Shown: one piece after another, positions 4,517 through 48,463 of the stretch | Numbering within the stretch: the stretch's first letter is position 1 | Layout of the letters: each line of letters opens with the position of its first letter | Virus record (IMG/VR): IMGVR_UViG_3300024288_000002 | Location: 1 to 55,001 of that record | Source of the DNA: a virus | Lineage: Duplodnaviria > Caudoviricetes | Direction: 5' to 3' (one strand) | Length of the DNA: 55,001 nucleotides | Translations under genes and position numbers: made by a program | Notes under the pieces: generated by a model | Told to the model about the DNA's origin: nothing | Databases searched by the model: none | What the model saw: the letters and a program-made list of their open reading frames with translations, nothing else

Positions 4517-5385
4517 TGCCTGTTCAGCTTCCCCCGAACTCGACGGGTGCTGTCATCGAGACTCGTACAGTCAGTAGCAAGGAACGCCAAGTGTTTGCGC
4601 TGGGCGAGCCTCCTCGTCCAGCACCAACACGTGCAAGTGGCGGTCAGCTCCTCTACGTCGAAGACTTCTGTGCCGTTCAGCCAGGCTTGTGGAATGACGG
4701 TGTAGGCTGGTGTGGTATCGACACAGACATCATATTCAATGGCAAGCCAACGCTTCGGCTTGATACTGGTGGCAACTCCAACGGTGGTCCGGCAAACCCT
4801 AACCGGACGGCAATCACATCCGGCGTGGTAACGAAGCGCCGCATCCATGATGGCTACCGTCATAAGTTCGGTATGGAGTTCTGGTTCCGATTTACCTCGT
4901 TGAACCTTACGACCAACACGATGTTCTCCGCGTCGATCTACAACCGCAACGGTACACAGGCACATCACGGTCGGGTGTGGCTTGATCCGAATGGTAATAA
5001 CGTACCCATGCACGCTCGTATCCTCGACGGTGCTGCGACCTTTGCATTGTCCGGAACGAACGGTGCAAGTGCTGCAGTGTACACCGACGTAGTAACATCA
5101 GTCAATCAGAATGGCGCGGGCACTCACACCTACGACGTTCCGTCCGGTCGGCTGGACCGAGCAGGTGGTTGGCACTGGTGCAAGCTGGTCGTCGACTTTG
5201 TGGCTGCAAAGTACGTATCAATCCAGCTGGATGGCGAGACAGCAGTAGACTTGTCCGCCTACAACCTGGATGTCACCGACACTACTGGCTTCGCAGGCAT
5301 GCACCATAGCTTCGAGTTCAGTGCCTCCACATCAACTCGACGGTACGTCAACATCGCCAACATCATCGGAACGGTGGAAGACTAA
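4516..5385 (+). CDS. Putative virion protein with lectin/concanavalin-like beta-sandwich
   Basis: Beta-rich; 'GGWHWCKLVVD...IQLDG' resembles LamG/ConA-like domains; coupled to its neighbours. Confidence 0.45.
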   Translation: MPVQLPPNSTGAVIETRTVSSKERQVFALGEPPRPAPTRASGGQLLYVEDFCAVQPGLWNDGVGWCGIDTDIIFNGKPTLRLDTGGNSNGGPANPNRTAITSGVVTKRRIHDGYRHKFGMEFWFRFTSLNLTTNTMFSASIYNRNGTQAHHGRVWLDPNGNNVPMHARILDGAATFALSGTNGASAAVYTDVVTSVNQNGAGTHTYDVPSGRLDRAGGWHWCKLVVDFVAAKYVSIQLDGETAVDLSAYNLDVTDTTGFAGMHHSFEFSASTSTRRYVNIANIIGTVED

Positions 5386-22984: not shown

Positions 22985-23506
22985 TTATAGAATCTCTACG
23001 CCTGTTGCAGGTGGTCGAAACGGTTCGAAGAGCGACAGATCGTTCAACTGAAATGAACGATAGGCAAGCAGGTGTCTAGTGGCATCCATGGCGTGCCGCT
23101 GGCCAGGAACCCACAGGCCGAGTGCCTTGATCTTATCGTCAATCCAGAAGCCTTTACCCTTTGATGCACCGGATCGAACCAGCTTGACGTAGTCTCGAGA
23201 GTACGCCCAGAGACGAAGAGCTCCTACAACCTCTGCTGCGGTGTAGTCGATCTTGTAGCGGTCGCGTTCGTCCTTGCGAAACTCGAACGGCTCGTAGACG
23301 ATGTGCACGCTCTTGTGGCCTGTGAAAGGTTGCGCATACCGACAAATGCCTTCGAGCCGGCTGAACAACGTGCTGAGCCGGAAGTCATCATCGCAGCAGT
23401 CGATCTGCTCACGACCCCACAAGTCGTCCAAGGTCCAGTACGCCAGGCCCGTAGTACCTCCTGGGTCCATTGCGATGATCAACTTCATCGGGCTGAATGT
23501 TACCAT
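22985..23506 (-). CDS. RuvC-like Holliday junction resolvase
   Basis: IIAMDPGGTTGLA, IVYE.F, HAMDATRH motifs. Confidence 0.8.
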   Translation of the reverse strand: MVTFSPMKLIIAMDPGGTTGLAYWTLDDLWGREQIDCCDDDFRLSTLFSRLEGICRYAQPFTGHKSVHIVYEPFEFRKDERDRYKIDYTAAEVVGALRLWAYSRDYVKLVRSGASKGKGFWIDDKIKALGLWVPGQRHAMDATRHLLAYRSFQLNDLSLFEPFRPPATGVEIL

Positions 23507-24356: not shown

Positions 24357-24677
24357 CTAAAGGTTCTCCTGGATCCTAAGTCGACGTTCTAGTTCCATCT
24401 TGGTCGCCTCAAGACTTTCGATCTGTGCTTCGACTTGTGCCAGCTTACGCTTCAGTGATGTGCGTCCGCGAAACTGGACAATGATGTTCGATGGGTCGAG
24501 GTTGGTACGGTTACCATCCTTGAAAGTGACATACTCATGAGCACGTAGAGTGCGTCCAAGATTTCGCTCGGCAATAACTCTGGAGGTGAGTTCCCAACCT
24601 TCGGGCGTCTTGACGTACTGGTATCCATTGGGTGCCACTCTCTCCGTTCCTACAGGTGAAGCTTGTCCTCTAGGCAT
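24357..24677 (-). CDS. Degenerate HNH-fold protein with C-terminal coiled coil
   Basis: 'RVIAERNLGRTL...YVTFKDGNRTNLDPSNI' has HNH_3 spacing but lacks the histidines. Confidence 0.65.
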   Translation of the reverse strand: MPRGQASPVGTERVAPNGYQYVKTPEGWELTSRVIAERNLGRTLRAHEYVTFKDGNRTNLDPSNIIVQFRGRTSLKRKLAQVEAQIESLEATKMELERRLRIQENL

Positions 24678-24855
24678 GAAGTCCCTCAGTATCTATAGCG
24701 CTCCAGAGTTTGTTTTCCAAAAGGCGATAATCCCTTTCTAGGTCAGCATCTCTGAATTCAAGGGCGGTGTAGGCAAGCTGCAACGAGTGCTTACCATTAA
24801 TCACTTTGATTATGTGCCTGCGTCGTGACTTGTCGTAGTATAGTTCCCGTATCAT
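24670..24855 (-). CDS. Hypothetical protein
   Basis: Coupled to the polymerase stop codon. Confidence 0.55.
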   Translation of the reverse strand: MIRELYYDKSRRRHIIKVINGKHSLQLAYTALEFRDADLERDYRLLENKLWSAIDTEGLHA

Positions 24856-27281
24856 TATAAGTCACCCCAGTTCTTGCCTACGGAGATGTCGACGGGGAAG
24901 GGAACGTAGTCGGTAAACTTTGTTCCCTCTTCGGCCATGACTGTACTGAGTAGTTTCGAAACTTCGTCTGTCCTAGTTTCTGCACACTCAACCACAAGTG
25001 CATCATGGATAGTAAGTCGGATGAAGCCCAGACCACGCAACATCGGTCGCAGACGTATAAGAGCGCTAAGGCAGATGTCGGAGGCAGTTGATTGTGGCAG
25101 GTAGGACAGCGCTTCATTCATCACCTCTCGCTTGTTCTGATCCGTGATCAACCAGAATCGTCGATGTCTTCCGAATGGAGTGACAAGGGGCTTGCCCGAC
25201 AGTACATGCGCCTTGATACCCTCTTGCCACCTCATCACGTCCGGGATCAGATTCGTAAAGCCTCTGTATAGCTTCTCGCCCTCACTAGCCGACAAGTTAT
25301 ACTCTTTTGCGACGGACCAAGACTCTCGACCATAACCGATGCCGTAGAAGAATGCCTTAGTTCGAATGTATTCTTCCTTGCCCCACTTGCCTGAGCCGTA
25401 CAACTGATCGGACAACTCGTTGAAGAACTTGTAGTCCGGATCAGGATTGCTCAGGATTTGTCGGAGGTATTCGTCCTGAGCTAGGAACGTCATCACTCGA
25501 GCTTCGACGTTTTTGTAGTCGGCTTGGATTAGGACATTCTCAGGTCGTGTGACACCAAACTGCCGTCTAATTTCCTTATCACGTACAATGTTCTGGAGAT
25601 TTGGATTTCGAGATGCCAACCGTCCTGACGTCGAACCGTGGAGCATGTAAGTAGTATAAACACGTCCGCGGTACATTCGTTTGCGGATTCCAGCGATATA
25701 TGTACTGTAGAGCTTGTGCTGTCGTCGATACCTGAGAAGAGCTTTGACAAACTCTCTTCGGGCACTCCCAACAGGCAGTCGGGTGAGCAGCGCTGTGAGT
25801 GTTTCTTCGTTCGTAGAAGCAACTTGCACCTTCTGCGTTTCTAGATACGCCTTAACTTGCTTCGGCGATCGTGGGTTGATTCCAAGCCATGCACCATCAT
25901 CCAAATGCCCTGTTGACTTCTGGATGACGACGTCCATTTCATTCTCGATGCCATCGAGACGGTTGAGGTACTCCGTCTCAAGCTTCGCCATGGCATCCCG
26001 ATCGATCTGGATCCCATTCAACTCTAGGAACATGAGCTGGTTGGAAGCCTTAACCAGGAAGTCATGGACCTTACGAACGTCCTCACGTTCCATCGCCTCT
26101 GTGAATAGCTCGTACAGTTCCCAAGTACATGCTACGTCATATGCATTGTACTTGTAGAGGATTGGTCGTGGAATGTTCGCGTAGTTACCACGCCTAGGAA
26201 TGAACCGCTTGATCTCGTCGTCGTACTTCGGAGCGCCAAGCTTTTCTACTGCGAGGACTTTAAGACCATGGTTACCTGGTCGTTCGTCGAGACAGTAGGA
26301 GGCGAGCATGGTATCGAACCAGAGCTCGAGGGCTCCGAGCTTGGGGTAAAGTCCGGCAAGGTCAAATTTGCCGTTGTGAGCAATGAGTCGCTTTCCACGA
26401 AAGAGCTCCCGCAGTCGACTGACCACCTTAGGGTCGGTAAGTGGATGCTCACCCAACACCACAGCTCGTCCCCTTGCGTAAGCAATTCCCACGCAAAGTA
26501 GAGAGTAGTTGTTCGGGTGGTCATCGCCGGCGACGTCTTTCTCAATACCCACCTCAATGTCGATAACGAGAGGTCCCTCAAGTCGTTCCAGTTCGTCGAT
26601 GACTGCGAGCGTCTGATCAACATCGTCAAATGCTCGCCACTCAGGTTCACGCCAAGACTCACGTCTACTCTCCTTCAGCTTCCCTATATCCGAAACGAGC
26701 GCTGGAAACGCATCTGCATTGCGCAGGCAGTACGCCGGGTGCCAAGTCGGAACAACCCGGATATGATTCGCCTCGCCCGCATTTGCACTGAGAAATCTTG
26801 CGCCAGTCTTAGGTGGGCCAACTCGGAGAGTGGTAATTGTGCCTGGATCGTCAACCAGAAGGGTGCCCGCCGTGCCGCCAAGTGCAATGATATCGGTAGT
26901 CTCGAATTGCTGTACTTCCCGTGCGAGACGAGCCTTACATGCAGTAACCGCACTACGAGGAGGAGTTGCGTTACTCTCAGGCCTACATAGACAAACATTG
27001 GTAAGAAGTACCTCGCTTCGTTTTATACTGTGATGCTTAAGTACAGCATCCAGCAGTTTTCCGCTAGGTCCCGTGAATGGTTTTCCGTAAGTCCCCTCGT
27101 AGAAACCAGGAGCCTCACCGACTACAACTAATCTACGTTCGCCTTCAGCTCTCGGGCGCCACAGATCTCTTCCAGCTGCTTTCACCCCCTGTGGGATTTG
27201 CGAAGGCACATACGGGGCGTCTCGCAGCGGGCAGTGGGAACAATCAGCTCCTAGCGCTTCAGCTTTCACTGTCCTGCCCAT
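24855..27281 (-). CDS. Family A DNA polymerase with N-terminal uracil-DNA glycosylase-like domain and 3'-5' exonuclease
   Basis: UDG: CSHCPL, VGEAPG, PFTGPSG, TNVCLCRP, TWHPAY. Exo: DIE, HNGKFD, YNAYD. Pol: SGRLASRNPNLQNI, DYKNVEAR, KAFFYGIGYG, TIHD. Confidence 0.93.
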   Translation of the reverse strand: MGRTVKAEALGADCSHCPLRDAPYVPSQIPQGVKAAGRDLWRPRAEGERRLVVVGEAPGFYEGTYGKPFTGPSGKLLDAVLKHHSIKRSEVLLTNVCLCRPESNATPPRSAVTACKARLAREVQQFETTDIIALGGTAGTLLVDDPGTITTLRVGPPKTGARFLSANAGEANHIRVVPTWHPAYCLRNADAFPALVSDIGKLKESRRESWREPEWRAFDDVDQTLAVIDELERLEGPLVIDIEVGIEKDVAGDDHPNNYSLLCVGIAYARGRAVVLGEHPLTDPKVVSRLRELFRGKRLIAHNGKFDLAGLYPKLGALELWFDTMLASYCLDERPGNHGLKVLAVEKLGAPKYDDEIKRFIPRRGNYANIPRPILYKYNAYDVACTWELYELFTEAMEREDVRKVHDFLVKASNQLMFLELNGIQIDRDAMAKLETEYLNRLDGIENEMDVVIQKSTGHLDDGAWLGINPRSPKQVKAYLETQKVQVASTNEETLTALLTRLPVGSARREFVKALLRYRRQHKLYSTYIAGIRKRMYRGRVYTTYMLHGSTSGRLASRNPNLQNIVRDKEIRRQFGVTRPENVLIQADYKNVEARVMTFLAQDEYLRQILSNPDPDYKFFNELSDQLYGSGKWGKEEYIRTKAFFYGIGYGRESWSVAKEYNLSASEGEKLYRGFTNLIPDVMRWQEGIKAHVLSGKPLVTPFGRHRRFWLITDQNKREVMNEALSYLPQSTASDICLSALIRLRPMLRGLGFIRLTIHDALVVECAETRTDEVSKLLSTVMAEEGTKFTDYVPFPVDISVGKNWGDL

Positions 27282-28009
27282 TCCTTGAAGATTCGAATGT
27301 TAGCTGCTAGTACTCTAGGGTCAACCTCCTTCTTCACGGTGAAGTAATCGGATCGTCGTGTGCTCCAGGCATCGATTGTGGTAAGTTGCTTACCAACCTC
27401 TGCCAGCTTGAACGGCTGTGCTGAGTCCATAGATCGGACTCCCTCGAATTGTACGTGATACATCTCTTGTGGATATATGCTGTTCAATCCGAGTAAGTGG
27501 ATCTTAAACCTTTTTGGATAGACTCTATGGATAGCACGTGCGATCTTCCGACGGATCTCTAGGTCTTCATGTGTAACGAGGACCTTCGGAATCCCGATGG
27601 CGGTGATCAAACTATTCTGAGCGTACTTCTTTAGCAGGAACTGTCTGTCGCTTAGCTCCTGTCCTTGTAGTACGCCCATGATGTTGTAGTTCGATGCTTC
27701 CGGACCATACTCGTCTAGGAAGGCATTTGTTGCTTCGAGTGTTGCAGCTGCGTCGTTCATAACGTCAGGTGCAACAATCTCGTGCGGCTTGATAGCTCGG
27801 GCGAAGTTCAGAAGATCTTCACCGTTAGCGAGCTGATTCTCAGCACACCCATTGTCTAGGATGATGTAGTGCCCACGTGCCCGAGCTGTTGCGTATGTTC
27901 TCAGGTATGAAAGGTTGCGACGCAGCGAGGCTAGTGGCAACACTAGGTGGATGTCACTGTGAAGTGCTTCCTCTTCATACCCCTTAGGAGGGATTAATGC
28001 TGCGCGCAC
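27266..28009 (-). CDS. Divergent DpdA/TGT-like TIM-barrel transglycosylase
   Basis: IILDNG, VAPD, GVLQG, KIHLLG, SMDS motifs in TGT order; adjacent to the preQ0 genes. Confidence 0.65.
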   Translation of the reverse strand: MRAALIPPKGYEEEALHSDIHLVLPLASLRRNLSYLRTYATARARGHYIILDNGCAENQLANGEDLLNFARAIKPHEIVAPDVMNDAAATLEATNAFLDEYGPEASNYNIMGVLQGQELSDRQFLLKKYAQNSLITAIGIPKVLVTHEDLEIRRKIARAIHRVYPKRFKIHLLGLNSIYPQEMYHVQFEGVRSMDSAQPFKLAEVGKQLTTIDAWSTRRSDYFTVKKEVDPRVLAANIRIFKEWAGQ

Positions 28010-28377
28010 TACTGTTCCTTTACGCTTGTGAATCGGGAGGACTTGATGAAGCCTGACTCGAGACTGTCCGGTGGAAGTGCAGCTGCGATTGACTCTTGTA
28101 GTAGACGCAGCTTGATGTAGGTGTATCGGGCGTAGTTGGCTAGATCGACGATCTCGTGGAGCGCTTCCTCGATGGTATCGACGGTTAGGAACTTTCCGGG
28201 GCCATACTTCTCGGCGCCCATTCCATGACGCTCTTCGGTCATGCGATCGAACTCTTCACTCAAGGCGAAGACGACCCCTGCGAGCTCTTGTGCGGCCTCT
28301 TCAGCCTCGGCTGACCCACGAAAGGTCATGTGCTCCTCGTCAGCCTGACGTTTGAAGTCGTCGGTTATATCAGGCAT
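28009..28377 (-). CDS. All-alpha (MazG-like) dNTP pyrophosphohydrolase
   Basis: 'RHGMGAEKYG...EEALHEIVDLANY' contains an EExxxExxD acidic helix. Confidence 0.6.
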   Translation of the reverse strand: MPDITDDFKRQADEEHMTFRGSAEAEEAAQELAGVVFALSEEFDRMTEERHGMGAEKYGPGKFLTVDTIEEALHEIVDLANYARYTYIKLRLLQESIAAALPPDSLESGFIKSSRFTSVKEQ

Positions 28378-29036
28378 TAGTGACCACCATTCAATCTTGA
28401 AAGGAATTCGGCCTTTGCGGTCCGGGTGTGATCGTTGAATACACCTGACATGACGGCCGTGTACGTCTTAGTGCCCGGTGTTTGTACACCGCGAATTGTC
28501 ATGCAGAGGTGTTCTGCTTCCATGACAACCGCAACGCCACGAGGCTTGAGGTTCTTCTCGAGGAAGTCTGCAACCTGTTGAGTGAGTCGTTCCTGAACCT
28601 GTAGAGCCTTGGCGAAGTGATGTACAACACGGGCGAACTTACTTAGTCCGGCCACGAACTCACCCGGCACGTAGCCTATGTCTGCCTTCCCAATAAACGG
28701 GATAACGTGATGATTGCAGAGGCTCACGAATGGAATGTTACGGACGATGATCATCTCGTCCATTCCATCATTCGGAAAGCACTTCCACTTGATCGGAAGT
28801 GGTTCGGTAAGCTCCTTCAGCATGTGAACGAATCGTGTTGGTGTGTCCTGACCATGTATGTCGTTGACGTCGAGACCTGCGGAAGTACGAAGAAGTACCT
28901 CAGCCGCTTCGATCGCCTCCTTCTCAGGATCGGCAAACATATGTGCAAGAGATGGATGGTTCCGTCGGACTAAGTCCAGGCCCATTCGTTCGAACACGCC
29001 TTGCAACTCTTCAGGTATTGGTTGTTCTCCAGGCAT
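28377..29036 (-). CDS. folE: GTP cyclohydrolase I
   Basis: DTPTR, SLCNHHVIPF, GLSKFAR, LQVQERLT, AEHLCMTIRG motifs. Confidence 0.95.
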   Translation of the reverse strand: MPGEQPIPEELQGVFERMGLDLVRRNHPSLAHMFADPEKEAIEAAEVLLRTSAGLDVNDIHGQDTPTRFVHMLKELTEPLPIKWKCFPNDGMDEMIIVRNIPFVSLCNHHVIPFIGKADIGYVPGEFVAGLSKFARVVHHFAKALQVQERLTQQVADFLEKNLKPRGVAVVMEAEHLCMTIRGVQTPGTKTYTAVMSGVFNDHTRTAKAEFLSRLNGGH

Positions 29037-29374
29037 TAGGCGTCCTTGTTTTCGAATTGAGCCCTTGGCACAACGATCTTCCGTATAGCACCGTTGTCCT
29101 GTTCTTGGTGAATGGCGACCAACGTCTGTAGCGATGGGGGCGACAGACGAAAGCGGGTGAGACGTCCGAATGGCTTTCCCGTACGTCGGGTGTGATTCAT
29201 CCCCATCGAACGGAGGTGCGCACGATTCGGAACCGACTCGCTTCGGTGCTTGGCGATCTCCTTCTCGTCTGCGCCTTCGCTCTTCAGACGCTTGAGAAGG
29301 TTCTTCTCCAATAGTGCTGCCATACGATCGATAGCACCCTTACGGTTCTGCTTGCCTGTACGTGTACGTAACAT
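29036..29374 (-). CDS. Basic hypothetical protein inside the modification cluster
   Basis: AAGGAG RBS; coupled to folE; Arg/Lys rich. Confidence 0.55.
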   Translation of the reverse strand: MLRTRTGKQNRKGAIDRMAALLEKNLLKRLKSEGADEKEIAKHRSESVPNRAHLRSMGMNHTRRTGKPFGRLTRFRLSPPSLQTLVAIHQEQDNGAIRKIVVPRAQFENKDA

Positions 29375-29382
29375 GCTACTCC

Positions 29383-29853
29383 TTATGGTAGCTGGTACTC
29401 AGCTCCGTTGGTGTTTGTTTCCTGGACAAAGATCCTTATTGGGAACTTGGCTCCAAACTTGTCGCACATGGCTTCGCAGATCCACTTGGCGATGTTTTCC
29501 GTCGTAGGATCTCCTGGCCATGTACGCAGACCAGGCAAAGTACTCCATGAGATTGCCGGAACTTCTTTCATGGGATCGTACTGGTGATCGTTGATGAGTT
29601 CACGTGACCATGGATCTTTGTAGTTGAGGTGGAGTTGGTGATCGAGCTGCTCGTCGATGAGCGTACGAAAGACCTTCTTCACCGATCCGAAATCGAGTCC
29701 AGCGAGAAGACCTTTCTCATCGATATGTCCTGCGATATGCATCTCGATCTGCAACGAGTGACCATGAATGTGCTCGCACTTACCTGGCAGGTTCATGAGC
29801 CGATGTGCGATCTCAGCATTGTGACTTACGTAGATACCTGCTCGATGGCTCAC
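29383..29853 (-). CDS. queD: 6-carboxy-5,6,7,8-tetrahydropterin synthase
   Basis: AHRL...CEHIHGHS, LDFG, LDH, PTTENIA, ET motifs; GTG start at 29853 with GTGA overlap. Confidence 0.9.
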   Translation of the reverse strand: MSHRAGIYVSHNAEIAHRLMNLPGKCEHIHGHSLQIEMHIAGHIDEKGLLAGLDFGSVKKVFRTLIDEQLDHQLHLNYKDPWSRELINDHQYDPMKEVPAISWSTLPGLRTWPGDPTTENIAKWICEAMCDKFGAKFPIRIFVQETNTNGAEYQLP

Positions 29854-30215
29854 GAGTCGTCTCCCAGTTGCAAAAGCATCTGAGCGGCTTCGAGATTTGC
29901 TTCGACCTTTTCGGTCATCTTGTCGGCGAGCTGCTCGGAGCGACTTGACTCCGGTGCGACCTCGGCTGTCTTGATCATGGTACATGGAGGAAGGAGATGA
30001 CCTATTTTTAGGCCATTCTCGTCGTATACCATGACGAACGCACCTTCGACGTTCCACCCACCGTACGTCGAGTAAACCACAACAGGGTCGATCTCCCCGT
30101 CGTATACTTCGACACGATACTTGATTGGAATCACTTCGGGCTCTATCCCTTCGTAACCATCATCCAGGAAACTTCTAACATGCTCGCCCATTACCTGCCC
30201 CTTGTGTCGCTCCAT
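29850..30215 (-). CDS. Hypothetical protein
   Basis: Fills the gap between queE and queD. Confidence 0.5.
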   Translation of the reverse strand: MERHKGQVMGEHVRSFLDDGYEGIEPEVIPIKYRVEVYDGEIDPVVVYSTYGGWNVEGAFVMVYDENGLKIGHLLPPCTMIKTAEVAPESSRSEQLADKMTEKVEANLEAAQMLLQLGDDS

Positions 30216-30931
30216 AGTAGGATGTGTGTACGGAATGATAGTCCGTATCCACGCGCAATTGCTTGGTCCACGATGCGTCGAGCTGTATCGACGTTCTGCG
30301 CAACGCTTGTACCTTCAGGCATGACCATTACACGATTCGTATCAATACCTGCGACACGAACGATCTCGTCGACCTCGGGAAAGTCTTCCGTGGATCTTAC
30401 TACGAACTTGAACCACGCCTTAGGACTTTGTGCAAAGTACTCTAGCGTTTCCCAGCGACGACGTTTGTTGATTATGTTACCACTGTGCTTCAGCTTTGGC
30501 GACACGTTGTATTGTGCTACGTGTCTATCGAATGGAAGCGTTGGTGTTATTGTTGCGGCTGTCTCGATGTGAATCGAATCTCCCCAGCCAGTCAGCGTCT
30601 GAATGAGTGGCAGCAAATCGCGCTGCTGCATCATAGGCTCACCACCAGAAATGACAAGCATGGTAGGCCAAGTAGCTATATCCCATAGCTTGCGAAGCTC
30701 GGAGATAACCTCGTCGACCTGCATTGTCTTGCGGTTCGCAGCCTTGTCGTGAATGATAGGCACTTCGAGCTTGCTGGCGAGCTCCGCGTTGAACGCCCAC
30801 GTGTATGCAGTATCACACCACGTGCACCGAAGATTACAGTCCGCCATCCGGAGGAAGAGGCAGTGTCTACCACTTGCTGCCCCTTCCCCCTGGACCGTAG
30901 GTCCGAAGATCTCATTGACCTGCAAGGTCAT
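30191..30931 (-). CDS. queE: 7-carboxy-7-deazaguanine synthase (radical SAM)
   Basis: EIFGPTVQGEG, CNLRCTWCDT, ISGGEP, IET, VSPK motifs. Confidence 0.95.
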   Translation of the reverse strand: MTLQVNEIFGPTVQGEGAASGRHCLFLRMADCNLRCTWCDTAYTWAFNAELASKLEVPIIHDKAANRKTMQVDEVISELRKLWDIATWPTMLVISGGEPMMQQRDLLPLIQTLTGWGDSIHIETAATITPTLPFDRHVAQYNVSPKLKHSGNIINKRRRWETLEYFAQSPKAWFKFVVRSTEDFPEVDEIVRVAGIDTNRVMVMPEGTSVAQNVDTARRIVDQAIARGYGLSFRTHILLWSDTRGR

Positions 30932-31800
30932 TAGTTACTTGCCTCCATGGATCGATGAGTAGTGGCGATTTTCCAGTACTCAGTGTCGTCGTATACCGTT
31001 GAATCCGTGTACGGGAAGTCGTCCGGGCGCTCGTTGTTGAACTTGCGAAGTGCCTCGTCGATTGCCTCGAGACGTTCGACACACGTGCCACAACGGCCAC
31101 AGTGGTTCTCGCCGCCCTTGTAGCAGCTCCACGTCAGGTGGAACGGAACACAAAGCTGCAGCGCACGATAAGCGATGTCGGCCTTCGTCGAGTTTAGGTA
31201 TGGTGTTGTGATTGGCTTGGCTACGCTAGTGAAACCTTCAGCGATGACTTGAGCATCTCGGGTCGGATCAAGCTCGATGTCGAAGTTGTGAAAACCTTCG
31301 TTGCCAGCAAGCATTGCCTGACCGAGCGTGTAGATAAACACCGGACGACAATCCGGGTAGATGAAGTGATCACCTGCGTGGACGCCCATAGCGATTGTAT
31401 TCGCCTGACGATTCACAGCCATACCACATGCGATGGACAGCATGATCATGTTACGGTTAGGTACAACCGTCTGCTTCATGGTGTCCTGAGCGTAGTGACC
31501 CTCAGGCACGTCGATGTGCTTGCAGCCACCTTCAGTACCGTAGGTGTCAGATGTACCTGGGTGCGAAGTGAGTGCGCTGTTCGAGATGAATGGGGTGAGG
31601 CCGGAGAGGTCGATGACGCTGTGACGAAGTCCGAGCGCCCTCGATGTGTTCGACGCGAAGATAAGCTCCTTGCGATGACGCTGTCCGTAGTTGAACGAGA
31701 CAGTTTCAACCTTGTAGTCCTGCGCTAGCAAGTCGTATACCATGGTGGTGCTATCGAGCCCACCACTAACGATTGCTAGCGCTAACTGCTTTTGGGTCAT
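30931..31800 (-). CDS. queC: 7-cyano-7-deazaguanine synthase
   Basis: SGGLDS, YGQRH, VPNRN, YPDCRP, TWSCY...CGRCGTC motifs. Confidence 0.95.
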   Translation of the reverse strand: MTQKQLALAIVSGGLDSTTMVYDLLAQDYKVETVSFNYGQRHRKELIFASNTSRALGLRHSVIDLSGLTPFISNSALTSHPGTSDTYGTEGGCKHIDVPEGHYAQDTMKQTVVPNRNMIMLSIACGMAVNRQANTIAMGVHAGDHFIYPDCRPVFIYTLGQAMLAGNEGFHNFDIELDPTRDAQVIAEGFTSVAKPITTPYLNSTKADIAYRALQLCVPFHLTWSCYKGGENHCGRCGTCVERLEAIDEALRKFNNERPDDFPYTDSTVYDDTEYWKIATTHRSMEASN

Positions 31801-34033
31801 TGAACTTGATCCTTCCAACTGCTTCGTAAACGAATGTTCTCCCAAGACGTGACGACAAGATAAGCCCACGCTGCTCGAGAGTCCCGAAGACAATGTCGGC
31901 TTGACGTGCTTCGAGATGGTACCATTGCATCAATCGAGATCGAGTCACGCCAGGATTTCGACGTATACTCTTGAAGATCCGTTGCAGTAGGATCTCGTTG
32001 GCGGAACGTCCAATACCGTTGATGATCTCGGTAGCATAGTCCCTCCAACCTTCTCCGTACTTGATTGCAAGCAACAGGTCCTCTACCTCGACAGTTACAA
32101 TGTCTTGCTGCAATCGCGACGCTGCGATAAGTACAGCAACCTTCAATATGGACTTAGACAACCGGTCGTACACCGGCGTCATGATGTCTGGCTGGTCGTT
32201 ATTTACGCCTGCGTAAAGCAAGGTCGCTTCGAGCCTGTTGTATCTCTGCCAAGCCTCCTGAGTTAGCTCCGCATTCCATCTACCTTCCGAGATATCTACG
32301 GTCTTACCCTTAACGATTACCTCGGTGTTAAAGATGTAGTGGTCGCGAAGCTCTTCCAATTCATCGAGGAGGACTTGACGTCCAGCCAAGTTCTGCTCCG
32401 TTGGAGGTCCCAAAGGCTGTAAGGTACTCACATCCGATTCCGCCGTTAAGAACAAGAACCGCGGGACAAAACCAGATGATACATGATCTAGGGTCAATAA
32501 CGACTGGATTCGCGTCTTGATCCCGCCTGCGAATATCAGGAGGCATGGTTCCCTAACCGTCACCGTTTCACGCTTGAGGACTCTTTTCATGGTCTTGCCG
32601 TCGTACAATTTTGTAAGAGCCTCGGCCATGCCAGCCATGTAGTCCTTGCGCGCCATCGCTTCGATGAGCCCCGAGAACTCGTCGCGCAGAAACATTGATG
32701 GCTTTCCAGGCCGGATTTCTAGTGACTGCATGAGCCCTTCTAGCGAGCCATCTGTTGCCAAGAGGACGTTGTCGTCCACCTCGTCCAGCATGTCCATTGC
32801 TATATCCATAGCAGTCGATTTTCGTGTCAGCGTCGTATCCGCCAGAAGCATGAACCACAAGTTCGGCATAATGGTCCCGAACGAGGTTGGCAAGCGAATC
32901 GTACCAGCAAGAAGTGAACTGAGGATCATAAGGGCGCCGGCTTGGTGGTACGCTACTGCCGCGTCCCCAAGAGTACTGGCCCATTCTATGTACCTTTCGA
33001 CGAATGTTTCGTAGCCATCCAGAGACTTGAGCTCGTCAGGCGTAATGAGGGGGGCTTGCTTTTCTGTCTCAGGTACAAGGATGTTAAGCTTCTCAACCGT
33101 CATAAGGTATGCGCGACAAACTTCTTCCCATAACAGACGTGGGTGCTTGCCATCGCGCTTGTACTTATTGCAGGCTGCGTCTGAAGCTACAACGAACACT
33201 TCTTCTCGGGACAGACCGGCTTCGAAGCAAAGCATCTGAAGCTGCCATAACGGCTTGCTCCATCCACCTTCTTCGTCGTCATTAGGCGGTTGACTATGAA
33301 TGCTAAATACGATTGGGTTGATCGATCTTCGATACCTTTGCAGGATGTCTACTGCAGCTTCGGTGGGAAGCACTTCAGGCATTGGATCATGGTCAAGGGT
33401 GTTGACTCGTGATTCGGCGTAGTCGCTAAAGTCTTCGATGTGGTAGTAAGTCTTTTTCGCCGTTAAGATCTGGACTTCGTACGGTAGTGCATACTTCATG
33501 TTGAACGTTCCAGGCACACGAAGCAGCTGCGTAAGATCCCAGCCACCACTATCAGCACCATCTGGTACGTGGTGGTACGTGATGTTCCTACTTACTTGCT
33601 CGGCCACCGCGGGGGTTACTGCTTTGTCGAAAACCCACAGGGCCTGCCATCTTGCGGGCGACGTTTGGACTATGATCGATGGGGCGACGAGCATAAGTGA
33701 TGGATCACACGCGTCGAGATCAGCCCAAGCCGCTGTACACATCTTGACGTTCTCTTTAACTCTTGCGCTCTTTGTTCCAGGCGCACGTTGGTTAGTCTTA
33801 AGGAGCTGGGGACAGAAGTACACATTTGCCGTTGCCTTGTTTTGGGAGATATGGTGCATCATTCTTGGAAGGTCTTCTGGGTACTTAAAGAACTCTTCCG
33901 TAAAGCCCTTCTTGCCTGTAATGTTTGTTATGTACGCAACGCATACGTATCCATCTGCTTCTGTCCCGAACAGCAGCTTGAAGAACGTTTCCTGTCTTAG
34001 GCGTTGTTCTTCCGGCGAGGCCGGTGTTGCCAT
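31766..34033 (-). CDS. DNA primase-helicase (RepB-like primase plus DUF3987-type helicase domain)
   Basis: WADLD, VQTSPARWQALW, LLRVPGT.N primase motifs; RKST, DGS.EGL, RDEF, SGFVPRF in the C-terminal domain. Confidence 0.85.
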   Translation of the reverse strand: MATPASPEEQRLRQETFFKLLFGTEADGYVCVAYITNITGKKGFTEEFFKYPEDLPRMMHHISQNKATANVYFCPQLLKTNQRAPGTKSARVKENVKMCTAAWADLDACDPSLMLVAPSIIVQTSPARWQALWVFDKAVTPAVAEQVSRNITYHHVPDGADSGGWDLTQLLRVPGTFNMKYALPYEVQILTAKKTYYHIEDFSDYAESRVNTLDHDPMPEVLPTEAAVDILQRYRRSINPIVFSIHSQPPNDDEEGGWSKPLWQLQMLCFEAGLSREEVFVVASDAACNKYKRDGKHPRLLWEEVCRAYLMTVEKLNILVPETEKQAPLITPDELKSLDGYETFVERYIEWASTLGDAAVAYHQAGALMILSSLLAGTIRLPTSFGTIMPNLWFMLLADTTLTRKSTAMDIAMDMLDEVDDNVLLATDGSLEGLMQSLEIRPGKPSMFLRDEFSGLIEAMARKDYMAGMAEALTKLYDGKTMKRVLKRETVTVREPCLLIFAGGIKTRIQSLLTLDHVSSGFVPRFLFLTAESDVSTLQPLGPPTEQNLAGRQVLLDELEELRDHYIFNTEVIVKGKTVDISEGRWNAELTQEAWQRYNRLEATLLYAGVNNDQPDIMTPVYDRLSKSILKVAVLIAASRLQQDIVTVEVEDLLLAIKYGEGWRDYATEIINGIGRSANEILLQRIFKSIRRNPGVTRSRLMQWYHLEARQADIVFGTLEQRGLILSSRLGRTFVYEAVGRIKFNDPKAVSASNR

Positions 34034-34174: not shown

Positions 34175-34729
34175 TTACGACAGCAGAGAGGAACGCGCCC
34201 CCGACTTGGTCTTGGTCGTAGCGGTTCCAGCAGCTGCAGTCCACTGCGCCTCGGCCCAGAAGCCCTTCGGCTCGAACTTCGGCTGGTAGGTCTTGCTCGG
34301 GTCCTGCTTGTCCTTCTGCTCTCCGACGTAGAGGCCGCCGACCATCATGACCTTGCCGATCAAGAAGTCAGGCGAAGGTACGCGCATCCGACCTGAGCTG
34401 ACGGGAAGGCCGAGCGCCTTCATCATGTTCGAGATGGTGTACAACGCCGGGTTGAAGAGCATAGCGTTCGTCCAGCACTTACGGTTGACGAACTGTCCAC
34501 CCTTCTTGTCGGCGACGACGGTGAACTCGATGGCGTAGTATGGCTTGCCAGGGTTCTTGCTTGCCAGGCCGCACTCCCTGAGGTTCACGTCGGTGATCGT
34601 CATCAGGTACTTGCCGGTCGGAAGAGGCTCGATGTCTCGCGACTCGGAAGCTGCTTCCTCTTCCGAGAAATTGACGTACAAGCCGCCATCGTCGTCCATG
34701 TCTTCCATGTAATCGCTGGGATCAGTCAC
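34175..34729 (-). CDS. Single-stranded DNA-binding protein (DUF669-like)
   Basis: 'EPLPTGKYLMTITDV...SKNPGKPY..IEFTV' motif; next to the Sak4-like ATPase. Confidence 0.7.
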   Translation of the reverse strand: MTDPSDYMEDMDDDGGLYVNFSEEEAASESRDIEPLPTGKYLMTITDVNLRECGLASKNPGKPYYAIEFTVVADKKGGQFVNRKCWTNAMLFNPALYTISNMMKALGLPVSSGRMRVPSPDFLIGKVMMVGGLYVGEQKDKQDPSKTYQPKFEPKGFWAEAQWTAAAGTATTKTKSGARSSLLS

Positions 34730-35627
34730 TTGTTACTCCTGGGTTTAGTAGCGCAAGCGCTTCGTCGGTTACTTCCATGTTTGGTTTGGTAGGTTTGGGA
34801 TTTTCGATTTCCATCTTAGCTGCGCTCATGATACCTGTCTGACGGACAATGATGTCGTACAGTTGCTCCATGTCCGGATTTACTAGGACAGGTGGGAGAA
34901 GACCTGATCGGTCCTTTGCAACTGTTGACTCGGTAGCCGCTGACTGCAGGACTCGTACCTGCGTTTCCTCGCCGTCTACAACCACCTCCTTGATGTTGTA
35001 GTACAATACGATGTCCAGGAATGCTGCGACTTCCTGGGCCATCTTCCCGCTGAGTGACGGGAGCTTAATGGGTCGCTTCATCCGATCCATGTCTTCACGT
35101 TCCAACGCCGTGAAGATCACGTTCATTGGAAGGTCACGGAACGCACGAACGAAGCGCCGAGTCTGTTCGAGGTTCTTGCCCCACTCGCGAATGCTTGGGA
35201 CGTCCATGTCGCGCTCGTCGCCCTTGTCGTCCAAGAGCTTCAGCATGATCTCATTCATGTTGAACTTCTGGATCTCTGTCAGGCTGTCAAGAACGACAGT
35301 CGAGAAGCCGTGACCTCCTGCGTAGAGTGCATCGTATACAGCCTGCATCTCTTTCCAGGTCTTGATTCGGACTCGCTCGACGCCAGGGAATTCCTTCCTG
35401 AGAGTCAGCACACCGCCTTCGATGTCGATGTACAGCACTCGACGCATCTCCGGAACTGCGAAGGCTGAACCTGCAAGTCGAGTCTTACCGACACCTGACT
35501 TGCCGTAGATCATCAGGTTGAAGTGAGGAGGTACGTCCGCGACCTTCTCCAGCTTGAGACCTGCAATCGTTCCTGGCGTCAGACTTGTTACTCGGCTGAC
35601 TCCGTCGATCACTCTCGGATGTGTCAT
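34722..35627 (-). CDS. AAA_24 / Sak4-like ATPase
   Basis: IYGKSGVGKT, IDIEGG, VVLDSLT, AKDR motifs. Confidence 0.85.
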   Translation of the reverse strand: MTHPRVIDGVSRVTSLTPGTIAGLKLEKVADVPPHFNLMIYGKSGVGKTRLAGSAFAVPEMRRVLYIDIEGGVLTLRKEFPGVERVRIKTWKEMQAVYDALYAGGHGFSTVVLDSLTEIQKFNMNEIMLKLLDDKGDERDMDVPSIREWGKNLEQTRRFVRAFRDLPMNVIFTALEREDMDRMKRPIKLPSLSGKMAQEVAAFLDIVLYYNIKEVVVDGEETQVRVLQSAATESTVAKDRSGLLPPVLVNPDMEQLYDIIVRQTGIMSAAKMEIENPKPTKPNMEVTDEALALLNPGVTSD

Positions 35628-35943: not shown

Positions 35944-36098
35944 TGTTTGCCCTTGATTTCTATTTCGCCGGTACATGAGCCCTTACCATCGAGGTGTTCA
36001 GTGGTTGTGTGACCACATTCGCACACAACAATTATGTCTTCCTCGTTGTCGGTTTTGTACCAGTACTCGAAGCCTGAGCAGTCGCACATGACTATCAT
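35940..36098 (-). CDS. Small Cys/His protein (52 aa)
   Basis: MIVMCDCSGF...CECGH...H...C; ATGA overlaps. Confidence 0.45.
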   Translation of the reverse strand: MIVMCDCSGFEYWYKTDNEEDIIVVCECGHTTTEHLDGKGSCTGEIEIKGKQ

Positions 36099-37333
36099 CG
36101 TCCGCCCTTGCTCTCGGTGCTCATGGGTTCGATCTCCCAGTAACGACGAATACGCTTTTCATAGTTCGAGAGGAACATATACTCGACGTCCTCGTCTCGA
36201 TTCGTACCAAGGCAAGGTTGGCGGTAAGCGCAAAACGTACATGCAAAGCGTCCGGGAGATGGGTAAACACGAAGGGCCGGATCGATGATGTCCATGGCTT
36301 CGAGCCAGATGTTATATCCCGCATTAGCCAGTTCTGTCGGCGTACGAAGTACCTGCTTCCGACTGAAGAACCTCGGACCTTCATCCTTCAACCACTCCAA
36401 GAAGTTGTCGTACGCTCCCGCTGCGAGACCTTGAGGGTCGCCCTCGCCGATGGTCTCGAGGTAAATGTCGTACGAAGTGTTTTGCGACTTGCTAACGGAG
36501 TACCAACATCCCTTACGCTGGACCTTGTTCGGCTCAGGCTCGATCGGGAATGCCTTCTTGATCTCGTGGTGGATGAACCCAGCGATGTCGAGTCCTAATA
36601 CCCACAGGGCCCAGCAGTACGAAGTGATCTGGTCGTCGAGTAGGATGAACTCGTCGGGAGCGTCGCCCTCTTCCTGTCCGGACAGACGAGCTGCTGTCTT
36701 CCAGTCAACGATCCAAAGGCGCCCATGCTCATCTTCCATCAGGCAGTCGATACGGCCACCATAGGTAACAGGAAGTCCAGGCCATGAAACCTTTTGGCTA
36801 GTGTCTTCAGGATCTGCCTTGAAGTGTGTCATGAAGAGCTTCCAGCACTGGTTGCACTTACACCAAACGACTCGGCCTTCAGGGTTACAAATAGGCACCT
36901 CGAACTCGATCTCTACCTTGATCGGTTTGAGGCGCCATCCGTCTAGCTTCGGACTGACCTTTGAGCAGTGATAGCGTAACATTCCTTCGCCAAGCGCGAC
37001 ACGCTCTTTGAAGTCCTGATCAAGCTCTGGGTCAATCTGTCCGTTATTCAATTGTACGTAGTGGTTCTTCTGCTCGATGCACATGTTCTTAAATGCAAGC
37101 AGAGCTAGTGTCTCGCGAGTCTCAGCGTCTTTGCCCCACATATCCGGGTCGTACCAGGTCTCCATCGCCTTGTGAAAGGCGCTGCCGAACTCTAACGGCT
37201 TGGGAGTTGTCTGAGGGTACCATCTGTCGACGAACAACCAGTGGTGACGTCGACGACATCCTCGGAAGCTGAGACGTTCGCTCGTGTGAATTGAGTGTGA
37301 AAGTTTAGCTTCGATGTAGTCGTTTAGATTCAA
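36095..37333 (-). CDS. RecB/Cas4-like PD-(D/E)XK exonuclease
   Basis: GSAFH, GRID, IVDWKT, QITSY and C-terminal CTFCAYRQPC motifs. Confidence 0.88.
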   Translation of the reverse strand: MNLNDYIEAKLSHSIHTSERLSFRGCRRRHHWLFVDRWYPQTTPKPLEFGSAFHKAMETWYDPDMWGKDAETRETLALLAFKNMCIEQKNHYVQLNNGQIDPELDQDFKERVALGEGMLRYHCSKVSPKLDGWRLKPIKVEIEFEVPICNPEGRVVWCKCNQCWKLFMTHFKADPEDTSQKVSWPGLPVTYGGRIDCLMEDEHGRLWIVDWKTAARLSGQEEGDAPDEFILLDDQITSYCWALWVLGLDIAGFIHHEIKKAFPIEPEPNKVQRKGCWYSVSKSQNTSYDIYLETIGEGDPQGLAAGAYDNFLEWLKDEGPRFFSRKQVLRTPTELANAGYNIWLEAMDIIDPALRVYPSPGRFACTFCAYRQPCLGTNRDEDVEYMFLSNYEKRIRRYWEIEPMSTESKGGR

Positions 37334-37453: not shown

Positions 37454-37849
37454 CTACTGGTAGACCTTGAACGACGACGATTGGTCGTTGTGGAAGCCGG
37501 TCAGGTTCATCTGTTGACCTGAGCCGACGTAGCCCTGGAACGTACTGTAGTCCGACGTGATACCGCCGAGGCAGTTCGCATCGTAGTACGTGCTGACCTT
37601 CCAGGGTGAAGAGTAGTTGTTCCTGATCGACGAGACCTGATCGTTGAACGGGTAGCCGATGTTCTGGCAGTGACCGAGATAGGCCGTATCCCAGTAGTAC
37701 ATCGTTCCGCCGCCGTTGCTGTCGATCCAAACGCAGAACTTGTTGGACGGGCAGTTGGAGAACGCCGCCGATGCAGGCGAGCCCGTCGCGAGGAGACCTA
37801 CGACGACAACCATCAGTAGGGCTGCCAATAAGGACAAAGCACGTTTCAT
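37454..37849 (-). CDS. Secreted peptidase-inhibitor I36 (SMPI/beta-gamma-crystallin-like) family protein
   Basis: Signal peptide ending ASA-A; CPSNKFCVW, NDQVSSIRN, YYDAN, NDQSSS motifs. Confidence 0.8.
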   Translation of the reverse strand: MKRALSLLAALLMVVVVGLLATGSPASAAFSNCPSNKFCVWIDSNGGGTMYYWDTAYLGHCQNIGYPFNDQVSSIRNNYSSPWKVSTYYDANCLGGITSDYSTFQGYVGSGQQMNLTGFHNDQSSSFKVYQ

Positions 37850-48118: not shown

Positions 48119-48463
48119 CTACATGGTGGAAAGGAAGTCGTGCGTGGGTGTTAGCACGATCTCATCGAGGCTGTGGTCCGTCACCTCAACGTGTGGAACG
48201 AATCCGCTTTCGTCGAGGCCGATGTCCGTCACGTTGCCACTACGCATTTGCTTGGGGGTATACTTCCTGGCCTTGTGCTCCAGGAGGTCCTGCGCCTGAC
48301 GTACCCTTGCCAGATGCGGCCGGGCAACCAACCGTCCAGCTCCCACGTTCTTCAGGGAGGCGCACTTCTTGCCCTTTTGCTGACCGCAGAGCGGACATCC
48401 AACGTGGAGTGCCCTGATCTCGCCAGGATTGAGTTGTACCTTACGCACGTTCTCTCCTCGCAT
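48119..48463 (-). CDS. Phage zinc-finger protein
   Basis: CPLCG..KG.KC...H..R motif. Confidence 0.6.
   Translation of the reverse strand: MRGENVRKVQLNPGEIRALHVGCPLCGQQKGKKCASLKNVGAGRLVARPHLARVRQAQDLLEHKARKYTPKQMRSGNVTDIGLDESGFVPHVEVTDHSLDEIVLTPTHDFLSTM

Follow-up and report, generated by a model that had tools for sequence, protein, structure and literature searches.

The window analysed here is the whole of IMG/VR virus record IMGVR_UViG_3300024288_000002, a linear sequence of 55,001 bp (CheckV completeness ~85%) from an uncultured phage, and our subject is a run of its genes that joins a pathway for 7-cyano-7-deazaguanine (preQ0) to a DpdA3-like transglycosylase and a DNA polymerase. The only public runs matching the record were assembled soil-metagenome contigs, one with all of its words, which is probably its source, and two with 6-7% of them, and no habitat evidence was drawn from the latter two. 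Structural genes occupy the + strand to ~22.9 kb; beyond this point, replication and early genes lie on the - strand. There we found, in operon order, a primase, QueC, QueE, QueD, FolE, an open reading frame (ORF) of 122 amino acids (aa), an ORF of 247 aa and a family A polymerase fused to a UDG (uracil-DNA glycosylase) domain, with two further small ORFs in the QueE/QueD and QueD/FolE intervals:

31766-34033, - strand: primase/helicase-like protein with a RepB primase N-terminal domain and DUF3987 (Pfam DUF3987 4.5e-17, RepB_primase 1.3e-06; phrog_10514 DNA primase 1.8e-84)
30931-31800, - strand: QueC (7-cyano-7-deazaguanine synthase), ~289 aa (Pfam QueC, TIGR00364)
30191-30931, - strand: QueE (7-carboxy-7-deazaguanine synthase, radical SAM), 246 aa (phrog_2076)
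29850-30215, - strand: acidic conserved 121-aa ORF in the QueE/QueD interval (tblastn in related loci)
29383-29853, - strand: QueD (6-carboxytetrahydropterin synthase), 156 aa from GTG 29853 (Pfam PTPS)
29036-29374, - strand: basic 112-aa ORF in the QueD/FolE interval (tblastn in close loci)
28377-29036, - strand: FolE (GTP cyclohydrolase I), 219 aa (PF01227, NF006826)
28009-28377, - strand: 122-aa acidic helical protein of a new family, fixed upstream companion of the DpdA3-like gene
27266-28009, - strand: DpdA3-like 7-deazaguanine transglycosylase, 247 aa (hhalign, predicted fold, catalytic aspartates)
24855-27281, - strand: family A DNA polymerase with an N-terminal family-4 UDG domain, 808 aa (DNA_pol_A 1.8e-56, UDG 3.7e-26, phrog_17 5.4e-93)

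Between adjacent genes of the run, stop and start have one base in common, the reading frames overlap by 4 to 25 nt, or there is a gap of 8 nt; the end of the primase gene overlaps the start of QueC, and the polymerase start overlaps the stop of the DpdA3-like gene by 16 nt. Because of this tight spacing, the whole run looks like a single translationally coupled operon within the replication module. An initial annotation made from the letters alone had described overlapping or closely spaced genes here, and coordinates and family matches on the - strand bear this out. Its calls of queC, queE, queD, folE, a tRNA-guanine transglycosylase (TGT)-like gene and the polymerase also hold. Some details of that map had to be changed: the all-alpha NTP pyrophosphatase it placed in the run finds no support, QueD starts at 29853 and not at 30057, and the two small conserved ORFs had been overlooked. 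The UDG domain of the polymerase also matches TIGR00758 (1.2e-29, 103 bits, under the cut-off of 125). Recent work links the fusion of UDG to a polymerase with phages whose genomes carry modified T (PMC13697223); no thymidylate synthase-like gene occurs among the scanned ORFs, a set that leaves aside the structural genes of the + strand and many small ORFs.

All four enzymes of preQ0 synthesis are present with family-level matches. QueC matches Pfam QueC PF06508 (173 bits, 7.7e-51) and TIGR00364 (163.4 bits for a cut-off of 150.3), and its translation shows an SGGLDS PP-loop and a C-terminal CGRCGTC motif; it probably starts with the Met at 31800, the open frame reaching a TTG at 31893 (ORF 30931-31893). 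QueE, besides phrog_2076 (1.3e-52) and Fer4_12 (2.8e-07), matches TIGR03365 under its cut-off (1.9e-25). QueD matches PTPS PF01242 (82.4 bits, 3.3e-23) and phrog_2389 (2.2e-27), with GTG 29853 as its start since the PTPS part is kept in 58 loci and the 74 codons upstream in 0. FolE matches PF01227 (182.8 bits, 5.4e-54) and NF006826 (179.8 bits for a cut-off of 162). By homology, FolE, QueD, QueE and QueC turn GTP into the free base preQ0 via 7-carboxy-7-deazaguanine (CDG) and 7-amido-7-deazaguanine (ADG). Of the three genes that the initial annotation had not recognised, QueF is confirmed as absent from the record, its sole match being the T-fold of FolE, under the cut-off; as to Gat-QueC, the Pfam scan found no glutamine amidotransferase domain in QueC; ArcS was not a named target of the searches.

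The order of QueD and QueE varies in close relatives, being QueC-QueE-QueD in the window and in locus L002 and QueC-QueD-QueE in L005, L006 and L008. At the nucleotide level, the only part of the 7-kb region similar to GenBank phages is a stretch of ~140 nt of QueC (31516-31657), which matches the QueC gene in 52 records of Gordonia, Mycobacterium and Rhodococcus phages with 70-74% identity. The 121-aa ORF, whose stop overlaps the QueD start as GTGA, has tblastn matches in 6 related loci (34-45% identity) and belongs to no Pfam or PHROG family. The 112-aa ORF is confined to the closest relatives (tblastn, 24-49% identity in 8 close loci; present in 5 of the 52 loci that have at least 5 kb upstream) and has no family in Pfam, PHROGs or NCBIfam.

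The 247-aa protein has 49 homologues of 220-300 aa among the matches listed, all metagenomic; our alignment holds 28 of the 50 listed proteins, query included, fragments and near-duplicates being omitted. Searched by sequence, the protein gave no match in the PDB, and the best PDB match of the family profile was the bacterial DpdA 7ui4 (E 0.021). By using hhalign, we found that the family pairs along nearly its whole length with the DpdA3 proteins of phiST (CGPG_00065; 99.4%, E 3e-21, 240 columns) and immuto (gp206; 99.1%, E 8e-19, 243 columns), and over 201 columns with that of Campylobacter phage CC_R7 (97.8%, E 1e-12). To 9g DpdA1 and Rosebush DpdA2 the probabilities were 0.65% and 1.2%, in comparisons of low power with single-sequence templates. 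The comparison of 27266-28009 with DpdA subfamilies that the initial annotation had proposed therefore places it with DpdA3 (97.8-99.4%). Family models for other DpdA proteins stayed under their cut-offs with the 247-aa protein itself, NCBIfam DpdA (NF041059) scoring 23 bits for a cut-off of 200 and Pfam PF20314 (DUF6610, DpdA4) 18.1 bits for a cut-off of 27; of the 28 aligned family members, 8 match PF20314 at E<=0.01, with 8.6e-07 as the best value, and 4 match TGT.

A tblastn search of 50,697 GenBank phage records with the 247-aa protein matched 20 of them (6 Bacillus, 5 Cellulophaga, 4 Flavobacterium, 2 Brevundimonas, 2 Rhodococcus and 1 Campylobacter). Those from Cellulophaga, Flavobacterium and Campylobacter are exactly the DpdA3 phages treated by Cui et al. 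2023 (PMC10516641), and the Rhodococcus matches (26% coverage, E 0.04) are probably due to chance. The same search returned no DpdA subfamily other than DpdA3 and, at E<=10, no halovirus. These comparisons show the 247-aa protein to be related to the DpdA3 subfamily over its full length.

Its AlphaFold (AF2) model is of high confidence (pLDDT 96.3, pTM 0.92). With Foldseek, the best 50 PDB matches were all tRNA-guanine transglycosylases (E from ~5e-7). VIA gave Z 15.9 to TGT and Z 15.3 to DpdA 7ui4 (root-mean-square deviation 3.2, 223 residues), but since this score cannot discriminate between TIM barrels (the unrelated PdxJ reaches Z 15.2), the fold assignment rests on Foldseek and the profiles. 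Within the 28 sequences, D52 and D195 are invariant and D82 is nearly so, and the positions of Q115-G116 and L173 are also invariant or nearly so. When aligned with bacterial DpdA (bDpdA), whose active-site roles are given in the available part of PMC10164549, D195 falls on the nucleophile Asp256 (chain numbering offset by 20), D52 and D82 on the DSG and LDV motifs that contain Asp95 and Asp130, Q115-G116 on His181-Gly182 and L173 on Leu236. From the profiles and the model we infer a minimal TGT-fold TIM-barrel transglycosylase.

IMG/VR holds at least 164 relatives of this transglycosylase, of which 80 loci were kept. They belong to a clade of uncultured soil phages with genomes of ~50-55 kb, and their DpdA3-like proteins are only 28-59% identical. 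Across these loci the synteny is kept as primase, QueC, QueD/E, FolE, 122-aa-like protein, DpdA3-like protein and PolA, and the polymerase is the next gene after the DpdA3-like one in 78 of the 78 loci that have room for it downstream. Since this order recurs in all 78, the gene cluster is far beyond chance. Searching the 52 loci with at least 5 kb upstream with the window proteins (tblastn, 1e-5), we found QueC in 52, FolE in 51, the primase in 50, QueD in 44 and QueE in 34, a census that is weak for diverged QueD and QueE. Downstream of the polymerase, two more ORFs are kept in most relatives: an HNH_3 endonuclease-like ORF just behind it (24357-24677; 6e-05, just under the cut-off) and, past this HNH region, a 173-aa ORF (22985-23506; phrog_1981, 1.7e-16).

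The genes just upstream of the transglycosylase were counted separately in those 66 loci whose sequence reaches at least 1.5 kb beyond the DpdA3-like gene on that side:

45 of 66 loci: MazG-like gene, then the 122-aa protein
12 of 66 loci: 122-aa protein only
6 of 66 loci: MazG-like gene only
1 of 66 loci: DUF5664 and MazG
2 of 66 loci: neither gene

The MazG-like model behind these counts was built from nine ORFs, seven of which come from counted loci and match by construction; Pfam MazG was the best match for 10 of 10 ORFs sampled from the 45 loci, above the cut-off for 3. The 12 loci with the 122-aa protein only are the window's closest relatives and lack MazG. Where the 122-aa protein is missing, the slot upstream of the transglycosylase is occupied by nucleotide enzymes: L077 and L081 have PRA-PH or MazG above cut-off, MazG matches are weaker in L019, L023 and L065, and L079 has PF18909/DUF5664 (1.6e-21) directly upstream of its DpdA3-like gene. 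PRA-PH or MazG also lies above cut-off in L079 and L071. The record itself has no MazG, PRA-PH, DUF5664 (PF18909), AAA_18, AAA_28, nucleotide kinase or phosphoribosyltransferase at E<=1. By using five DpdA3-linked kinases as phmmer queries against the ORFs of the window and of loci L001-L134, we found no kinase in the clade; two phosphoribosyltransferases and other DpdA3 neighbours used in the same way gave none either.

The second constant partner is the 122-aa protein. In 58 of the 58 IMG/VR loci found through its family, a DpdA3-like ORF lies directly downstream on the same strand; conversely, among the 80 loci found through the transglycosylase, it is present in 69, lacks room in 2 and is missing from 9. 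Its family comprises 233 representative clusters, none of them named, and is acidic (median isoelectric point 4.6). In an alignment of 41 members we found two motifs, R-H-E-x-G-A-x-K-Y-G and E-E-x-x-D-L-A-N-Y, and four invariant residues (G54, E75, D78 and N81), E75 and D78 being the only invariant acidic ones, as the acidic positions upstream vary. The AF2 model is a two-helix hairpin (pLDDT 76). One of the 41 members carries an N-terminal zinc finger of the Phage_zn_bind_8 type (7.2e-05), and a zinc finger of this kind also occurs elsewhere in the window (ORF 48119-48463, 1.3e-06).

Searches for a relative of the 122-aa protein came back empty: no family in Pfam (E<=10), NCBIfam (E<=0.1) or PHROGs (E<=0.001), nothing usable in the PDB by sequence or profile (best E 0.5-0.9), no Foldseek match of the model in the PDB and nothing usable in BFVD (E>=2.7), only coiled coils VIA-wide (Z<=5.5), and only unnamed viral clusters in the ESM Atlas, where the nearest named cluster, at 0.76, is likely chance. 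None of the five cultured DpdA3 phage records searched contains a member of its family, and a tblastn search of the 50,697 GenBank phage records gave only two chance matches (E=4). The call of 28009-28377 as an all-alpha NTP pyrophosphatase is thus unsupported by sequence, profile or fold. The predicted complex with the DpdA3-like protein scored 0.00 for a mark of 0.32, which is evidence neither way. The idea that the gene is a simple stand-in for MazG, taking the slot where MazG or DUF5664 is missing, was rejected as 122-aa protein and MazG co-occur in 45 of 66 loci. The 122-aa protein is a new family, so far only from uncultured phages, and a truly new element of the module; we propose that it is an accessory of the transglycosylase step.

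As to known systems, the closest are the DpdA3 phages. Like them, as far as they are described in the available part of Cui et al. 2023 (PMC10516641), the record encodes a ~250-aa TGT-fold protein without Zn site that matches DpdA3 over its full length; FolE, QueD and QueE (in immuto also QueC) are co-encoded, and phiST has pathway, transglycosylase and polymerase in one run. Unlike them, the record has a 247-aa protein only 22-24% identical to their DpdA3, lacks MazG and a kinase, and has the extra 122-aa family fixed upstream of the transglycosylase. Also, its pathway ends at QueC, without DpdL, QueF, DpdN or DpdM, and the predicted product is therefore dPreQ0 or dADG. Among isolated phages, the 247-aa protein has its best tblastn relatives in the Bacillus BSP7 group (1e-10) and in Brevundimonas phages vB_BpoS-StAshley and MaInes (3e-4). 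BSP7 and StAshley likewise have QueC, QueD, QueE and FolE, their DpdA3-like gene immediately precedes the polymerase, and BSP7 shares the size of ~55 kb and a primase upstream of QueC. Neither has a member of the 122-aa family; BSP7 has instead a P-loop protein upstream of the transglycosylase, and StAshley adds a ribonucleotide reductase, a deoxynucleoside monophosphate (dNMP) kinase and a phosphoribosyltransferase. We found no report on DNA modification in the BSP7 group or in StAshley/MaInes in the literature searched.

Nucleotide enzymes lie near DpdA3 in each of the five cultured lineages examined. The order in phiST is QueD, QueE, FolE, MazG-like, DpdL, AAA_18 kinase-like, DpdA3 and polymerase. 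In immuto, a phosphoribosyltransferase adjoins FolE, a PRA-PH hydrolase (3e-10) lies two genes ahead of DpdA3 and a 'thymidylate kinase' two genes past it. Campylobacter CC_R7 has QueC, DpdA3, an AAA_28 kinase, homologous to that of immuto (E 2e-7), and the polymerase. In BSP7, a weak match to a P-loop/dNK (deoxynucleoside kinase) protein is followed by the DpdA3-like gene and the polymerase, and StAshley has QueC, QueD, QueE, the DpdA3-like gene and the polymerase, then the reductase, the dNMP kinase, FolE and the phosphoribosyltransferase. DUF1599/Nmad1 was found neither in our record (E<=10) nor in the five cultured DpdA3 phage records. For the two control phages the picture differs: Rosebush (DpdA2) has none of these nucleotide enzymes nearby and its gene is not adjacent to the polymerase, and in 9g (DpdA1) dpdA is two genes from the polymerase with no pyrophosphatase or kinase adjacent. 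Since the 9g enzyme is treated in the literature as acting on DNA, polymerase linkage is not diagnostic; linkage to nucleotide enzymes may be, on five DpdA3 lineages and two controls.

The phosphoribosyltransferase lies beside FolE in two unrelated DpdA3 phages (immuto 4819-5214, StAshley 15302-15763). The two proteins are homologous (32% identity, E 7e-18; Pfam Pribosyltran), and it is possible that they recycle the released guanine to GMP/GTP for 7-deazaguanine synthesis.

With Queuovirinae phage 9g, whose DpdA1 modifies ~25% of G to 2'-deoxyarchaeosine (dG+), the record shares a similar gene order (in 9g polymerase, dpdA, folE, queD, queC, queE) and, further along, a helicase, a Cas4-like nuclease, a DUF669 single-stranded DNA-binding protein (SSB) and a Sak4-like ATPase. 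In the window, this 9g-like replication module comprises:

34175-34729: DUF669 SSB-like gene
34722-35627: AAA_24 Sak4-like ATPase
36095-37333: PD-(D/E)XK Cas4-like nuclease
40248-41735: SNF2 helicase

In the same early region, a 236-aa ORF (37454-38164) carries a Peptidase inhibitor I36 domain (PF03995, 1.7e-12, above the cut-off), which is unusual in a phage. The 9g system is unlike ours in its DpdA1, which has 317 aa and belongs to another subfamily without detectable profile relation (0.65%), in its Gat-QueC and in its separate clamp, whereas the record's polymerase carries a UDG domain. The bacterial DpdA/DpdB/DpdC system (Salmonella Montevideo, 7ui4), as given in the available part of PMC10164549, shares the TIM-barrel TGT fold and the catalytic Asp; the 247-aa protein lacks its Ins1, Ins2, Ins8 and Zn site CXCX2CX22H, and the record lacks the DpdB ATPase partner and DpdC.

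Taking these observations together, we regard the gene run as a module for 7-deazaguanine modification of DNA, of the DpdA3 type and carried by an uncultured soil phage. We estimate at roughly 80% the probability that the phage makes a preQ0-derived base and places it in its own DNA through the DpdA3-like enzyme. A preQ0-derived 7-deazaguanine in the DNA had already been proposed in the initial annotation, and it is now well supported by the full pathway together with a DpdA3 homologue that keeps the catalytic aspartates. In the mechanism we propose, D195 would act as aspartate nucleophile and D52 as general acid/base, and the enzyme would displace guanine from deoxyribose and install the 7-deazaguanine in its place. 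Virion DNA would then carry dPreQ0, or dADG should QueC go no further than the amide; the modified base would probably replace a large share of G and protect the DNA from restriction. The base exchange would occur on DNA, during or after its synthesis by the co-translated polymerase.

This scheme has to be set against several points. We know of no DpdA3 enzyme for which action on DNA has been shown. Attempts to test DpdA3 in E. coli failed, according to the available part of Cui et al. 2023 (PMC10516641). The available part of PMC10164549 describes a CXCX2CX22H Zn site and a large Ins8 as conserved in the DpdA family, Ins8 making up 30% of bacterial DpdA and contacting nucleic acid in bDpdA and TGT. 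The 247-aa protein has a single Cys and only 52 residues after D195, and therefore lacks both; no Cys column is conserved in the 28 aligned sequences, and the family is not basic (median isoelectric point 6.2). The modules of relatives hold free-nucleotide enzymes that exchange on DNA does not need (52 of 66 loci have MazG, and one has DUF5664), and kinases neighbour DpdA3 in cultured DpdA3 phages. Genes may also be missing from a record that is ~85% complete. Finally, the modified base is most likely dPreQ0 or dADG, nitrile and amide being inseparable by sequence.

For the insertion step, we keep base exchange on DNA as the default, with chances that we see as evenly balanced, because no other activity has been shown for any relative and the record is without pyrophosphatase and kinase. 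Cui et al. 2023 (PMC10516641) report complete replacement of G in the DpdA3 phages that were studied by mass spectrometry and propose post-replicative insertion for all DpdA/7-deazaguanine modifications; the words kinase and phosphoribosyl do not occur in their main text. A 2025 paper cites 7-deazaguanine as an example of modification at the level of the nucleic acid, and our literature search found no test of the DpdA3 mechanism.

Exchange at the level of free nucleotides is an alternative that we consider possible, though on balance doubtful. Guanine would be exchanged for preQ0 on dGMP (possibly dGTP), kinases would phosphorylate the product up to the triphosphate, and this would be incorporated by the polymerase encoded next door. 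MazG or DUF5664, where present, would turn dGTP to dGMP, both feeding the exchange and removing the competitor, and in our record, without MazG or kinase, host enzymes and dGMP from host DNA breakdown would serve. The gene order of the wider clade fits this, with FolE, MazG, 122-aa-like, DpdA3-like and PolA in 45 of 66 loci, MazG only in a further 6, DUF5664 with MazG in 1, and, in L079, DUF5664 directly upstream of the DpdA3-like gene. The DUF5664/PF18909 family hydrolyses dATP, dGTP and dUTP to the monophosphates, as reported in the available part of PMC12884076 (2026). All five cultured DpdA3 lineages have a kinase(-like) gene, an NTP pyrophosphatase gene or both near DpdA3, that is within a few genes (within ~6 kb in StAshley), whereas the two controls, Rosebush and 9g, have no adjacent nucleotide enzymes; these controls are two genomes only. 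The missing Ins8 and Zn site of the 247-aa protein also count in favour of this route, and base exchange on dNMP has a phage precedent, DmtZ. Moreover, Hutinet 2019 records a modified-dGTP proposal for Campylobacter phages, and Cui et al. 2023 (PMC10516641) refer both to ADG as a nucleoside in infected cells and to complete G replacement.

Several points speak against free nucleotides as substrate. No TGT-superfamily enzyme is known to act on mononucleotides; the record has none of the MazG, PRA-PH, DUF5664, AAA_18/AAA_28 kinase or phosphoribosyltransferase genes searched for, its 12 closest relatives also lack MazG, the phmmer search with the five DpdA3-linked kinases found none in the 80 related loci, and the 122-aa protein has no P-loop or pyrophosphatase signature. 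The initial annotation had raised pre-replicative incorporation on two grounds: the dNTP pyrophosphatase at 28009-28377, which is unsupported, and the linkage to the polymerase, which is real (78 of 78) but undiagnostic, as it is also seen for 9g DpdA1. Polymerase adjacency was dropped as a pre-replicative argument after the 9g control. In the Z-genome phages (DutZ/DUF5664, DmtZ and DpoZ; available part of PMC12884076) we see a functional analogue for the nucleotide-level route only: the logic runs from dNTP pyrophosphatase through dNMP base exchange and kinase to the phage polymerase, and the DUF5664 gene of L079 recalls it, but DmtZ has the NDT and not the TGT fold and our record has none of these enzymes. 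In a more specific form, which we hold just as tentatively, the DpdA3-like enzyme would be a deoxynucleotide transglycosylase acting on dGMP with the 122-aa protein as obligate partner.

It is unlikely that this 122-aa protein, for which we prefer the part of an accessory to the transglycosylase, is instead a highly diverged all-alpha NTP pyrophosphatase. It would be a two-helix unit forming a four-helix bundle as a dimer, and would have taken over the role of MazG in the subclade that lost it. MazG-type NTP pyrophosphatases have four conserved acidic metal ligands (ExxE...ExxD). The invariant E75-x-x-D78-x-x-x-Y82 is spaced like the second MazG motif, and this stretch is the sole hhalign pairing with the MazG neighbours (14 columns) and the site of a weak match to the same motif of PDB 2p06 (E 0.91). 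R-H-E-x-G-A-x-K-Y pairs with Y-E-x-G-A-x-K-Y of DUF5664 (19 columns, E 0.021), and the 12 loci closest to the window retain the 122-aa gene without MazG. Yet only single motifs pair, with hhalign probabilities of 0.2% (phiST MazG), 0.4% (MazG-like neighbours) and 2.2% (DUF5664 profile); none of the 41 members matches an NTP-pyrophosphatase family among 25 of the 31 Pfam families listed (E<=1), two invariant acidic residues stand where MazG needs four, no fold matches, and co-occurrence with true MazG in 45 of 66 loci leaves no simple replacement.

We consider it very improbable that the module leaves phage DNA unmodified and serves to tune translation during infection, by supplying the host with preQ0/queuosine for tRNA or by TGT-like action on tRNA: Hutinet 2019 mentions this option for phages with pathway genes and no recognised DpdA, and the fold scores tie (Z 15.9 for tRNA-guanine transglycosylase, 15.3 for DpdA), but the protein is a full-length homologue of DpdA3, and in those DpdA3 phages to which mass spectrometry was applied the DNA is fully modified (Cui et al. 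2023, PMC10516641), it lacks the insertions that grip the tRNA anticodon arm in TGT, and its gene is fixed between pathway and replicative polymerase in 78 of 78 loci. Insertion into the phage's own DNA by the DpdA3-like enzyme thus remains the reading that we prefer.

To our knowledge, DpdA3 phages are the only ones that replace every G with a 7-deazaguanine. In the clade described here, the DpdA3-like gene keeps a fixed place, with the gene of a small protein family that had escaped notice on one side, the replicative polymerase on the other and in most cases MazG just upstream, and so the clade offers a minimal set for reconstitution: the pathway, MazG, the 122-aa protein, the DpdA3-like enzyme and the polymerase. 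The 122-aa protein is a candidate for a missing partner, whose absence might explain the failure of DpdA3 in heterologous tests, and the cultured phages BSP7 and StAshley make the question of pre- or post-replicative modification accessible. If the exchange were on dGMP, the modified G would be built before replication, as are hydroxymethylcytosine (hmC) in T4 and 2-aminoadenine in Z phages, and this would be the first purine replacement by a TGT-fold enzyme acting on free nucleotides. Dense modification of G bears on evasion of restriction and CRISPR, and also on the success of sequencing in recovering such phages.

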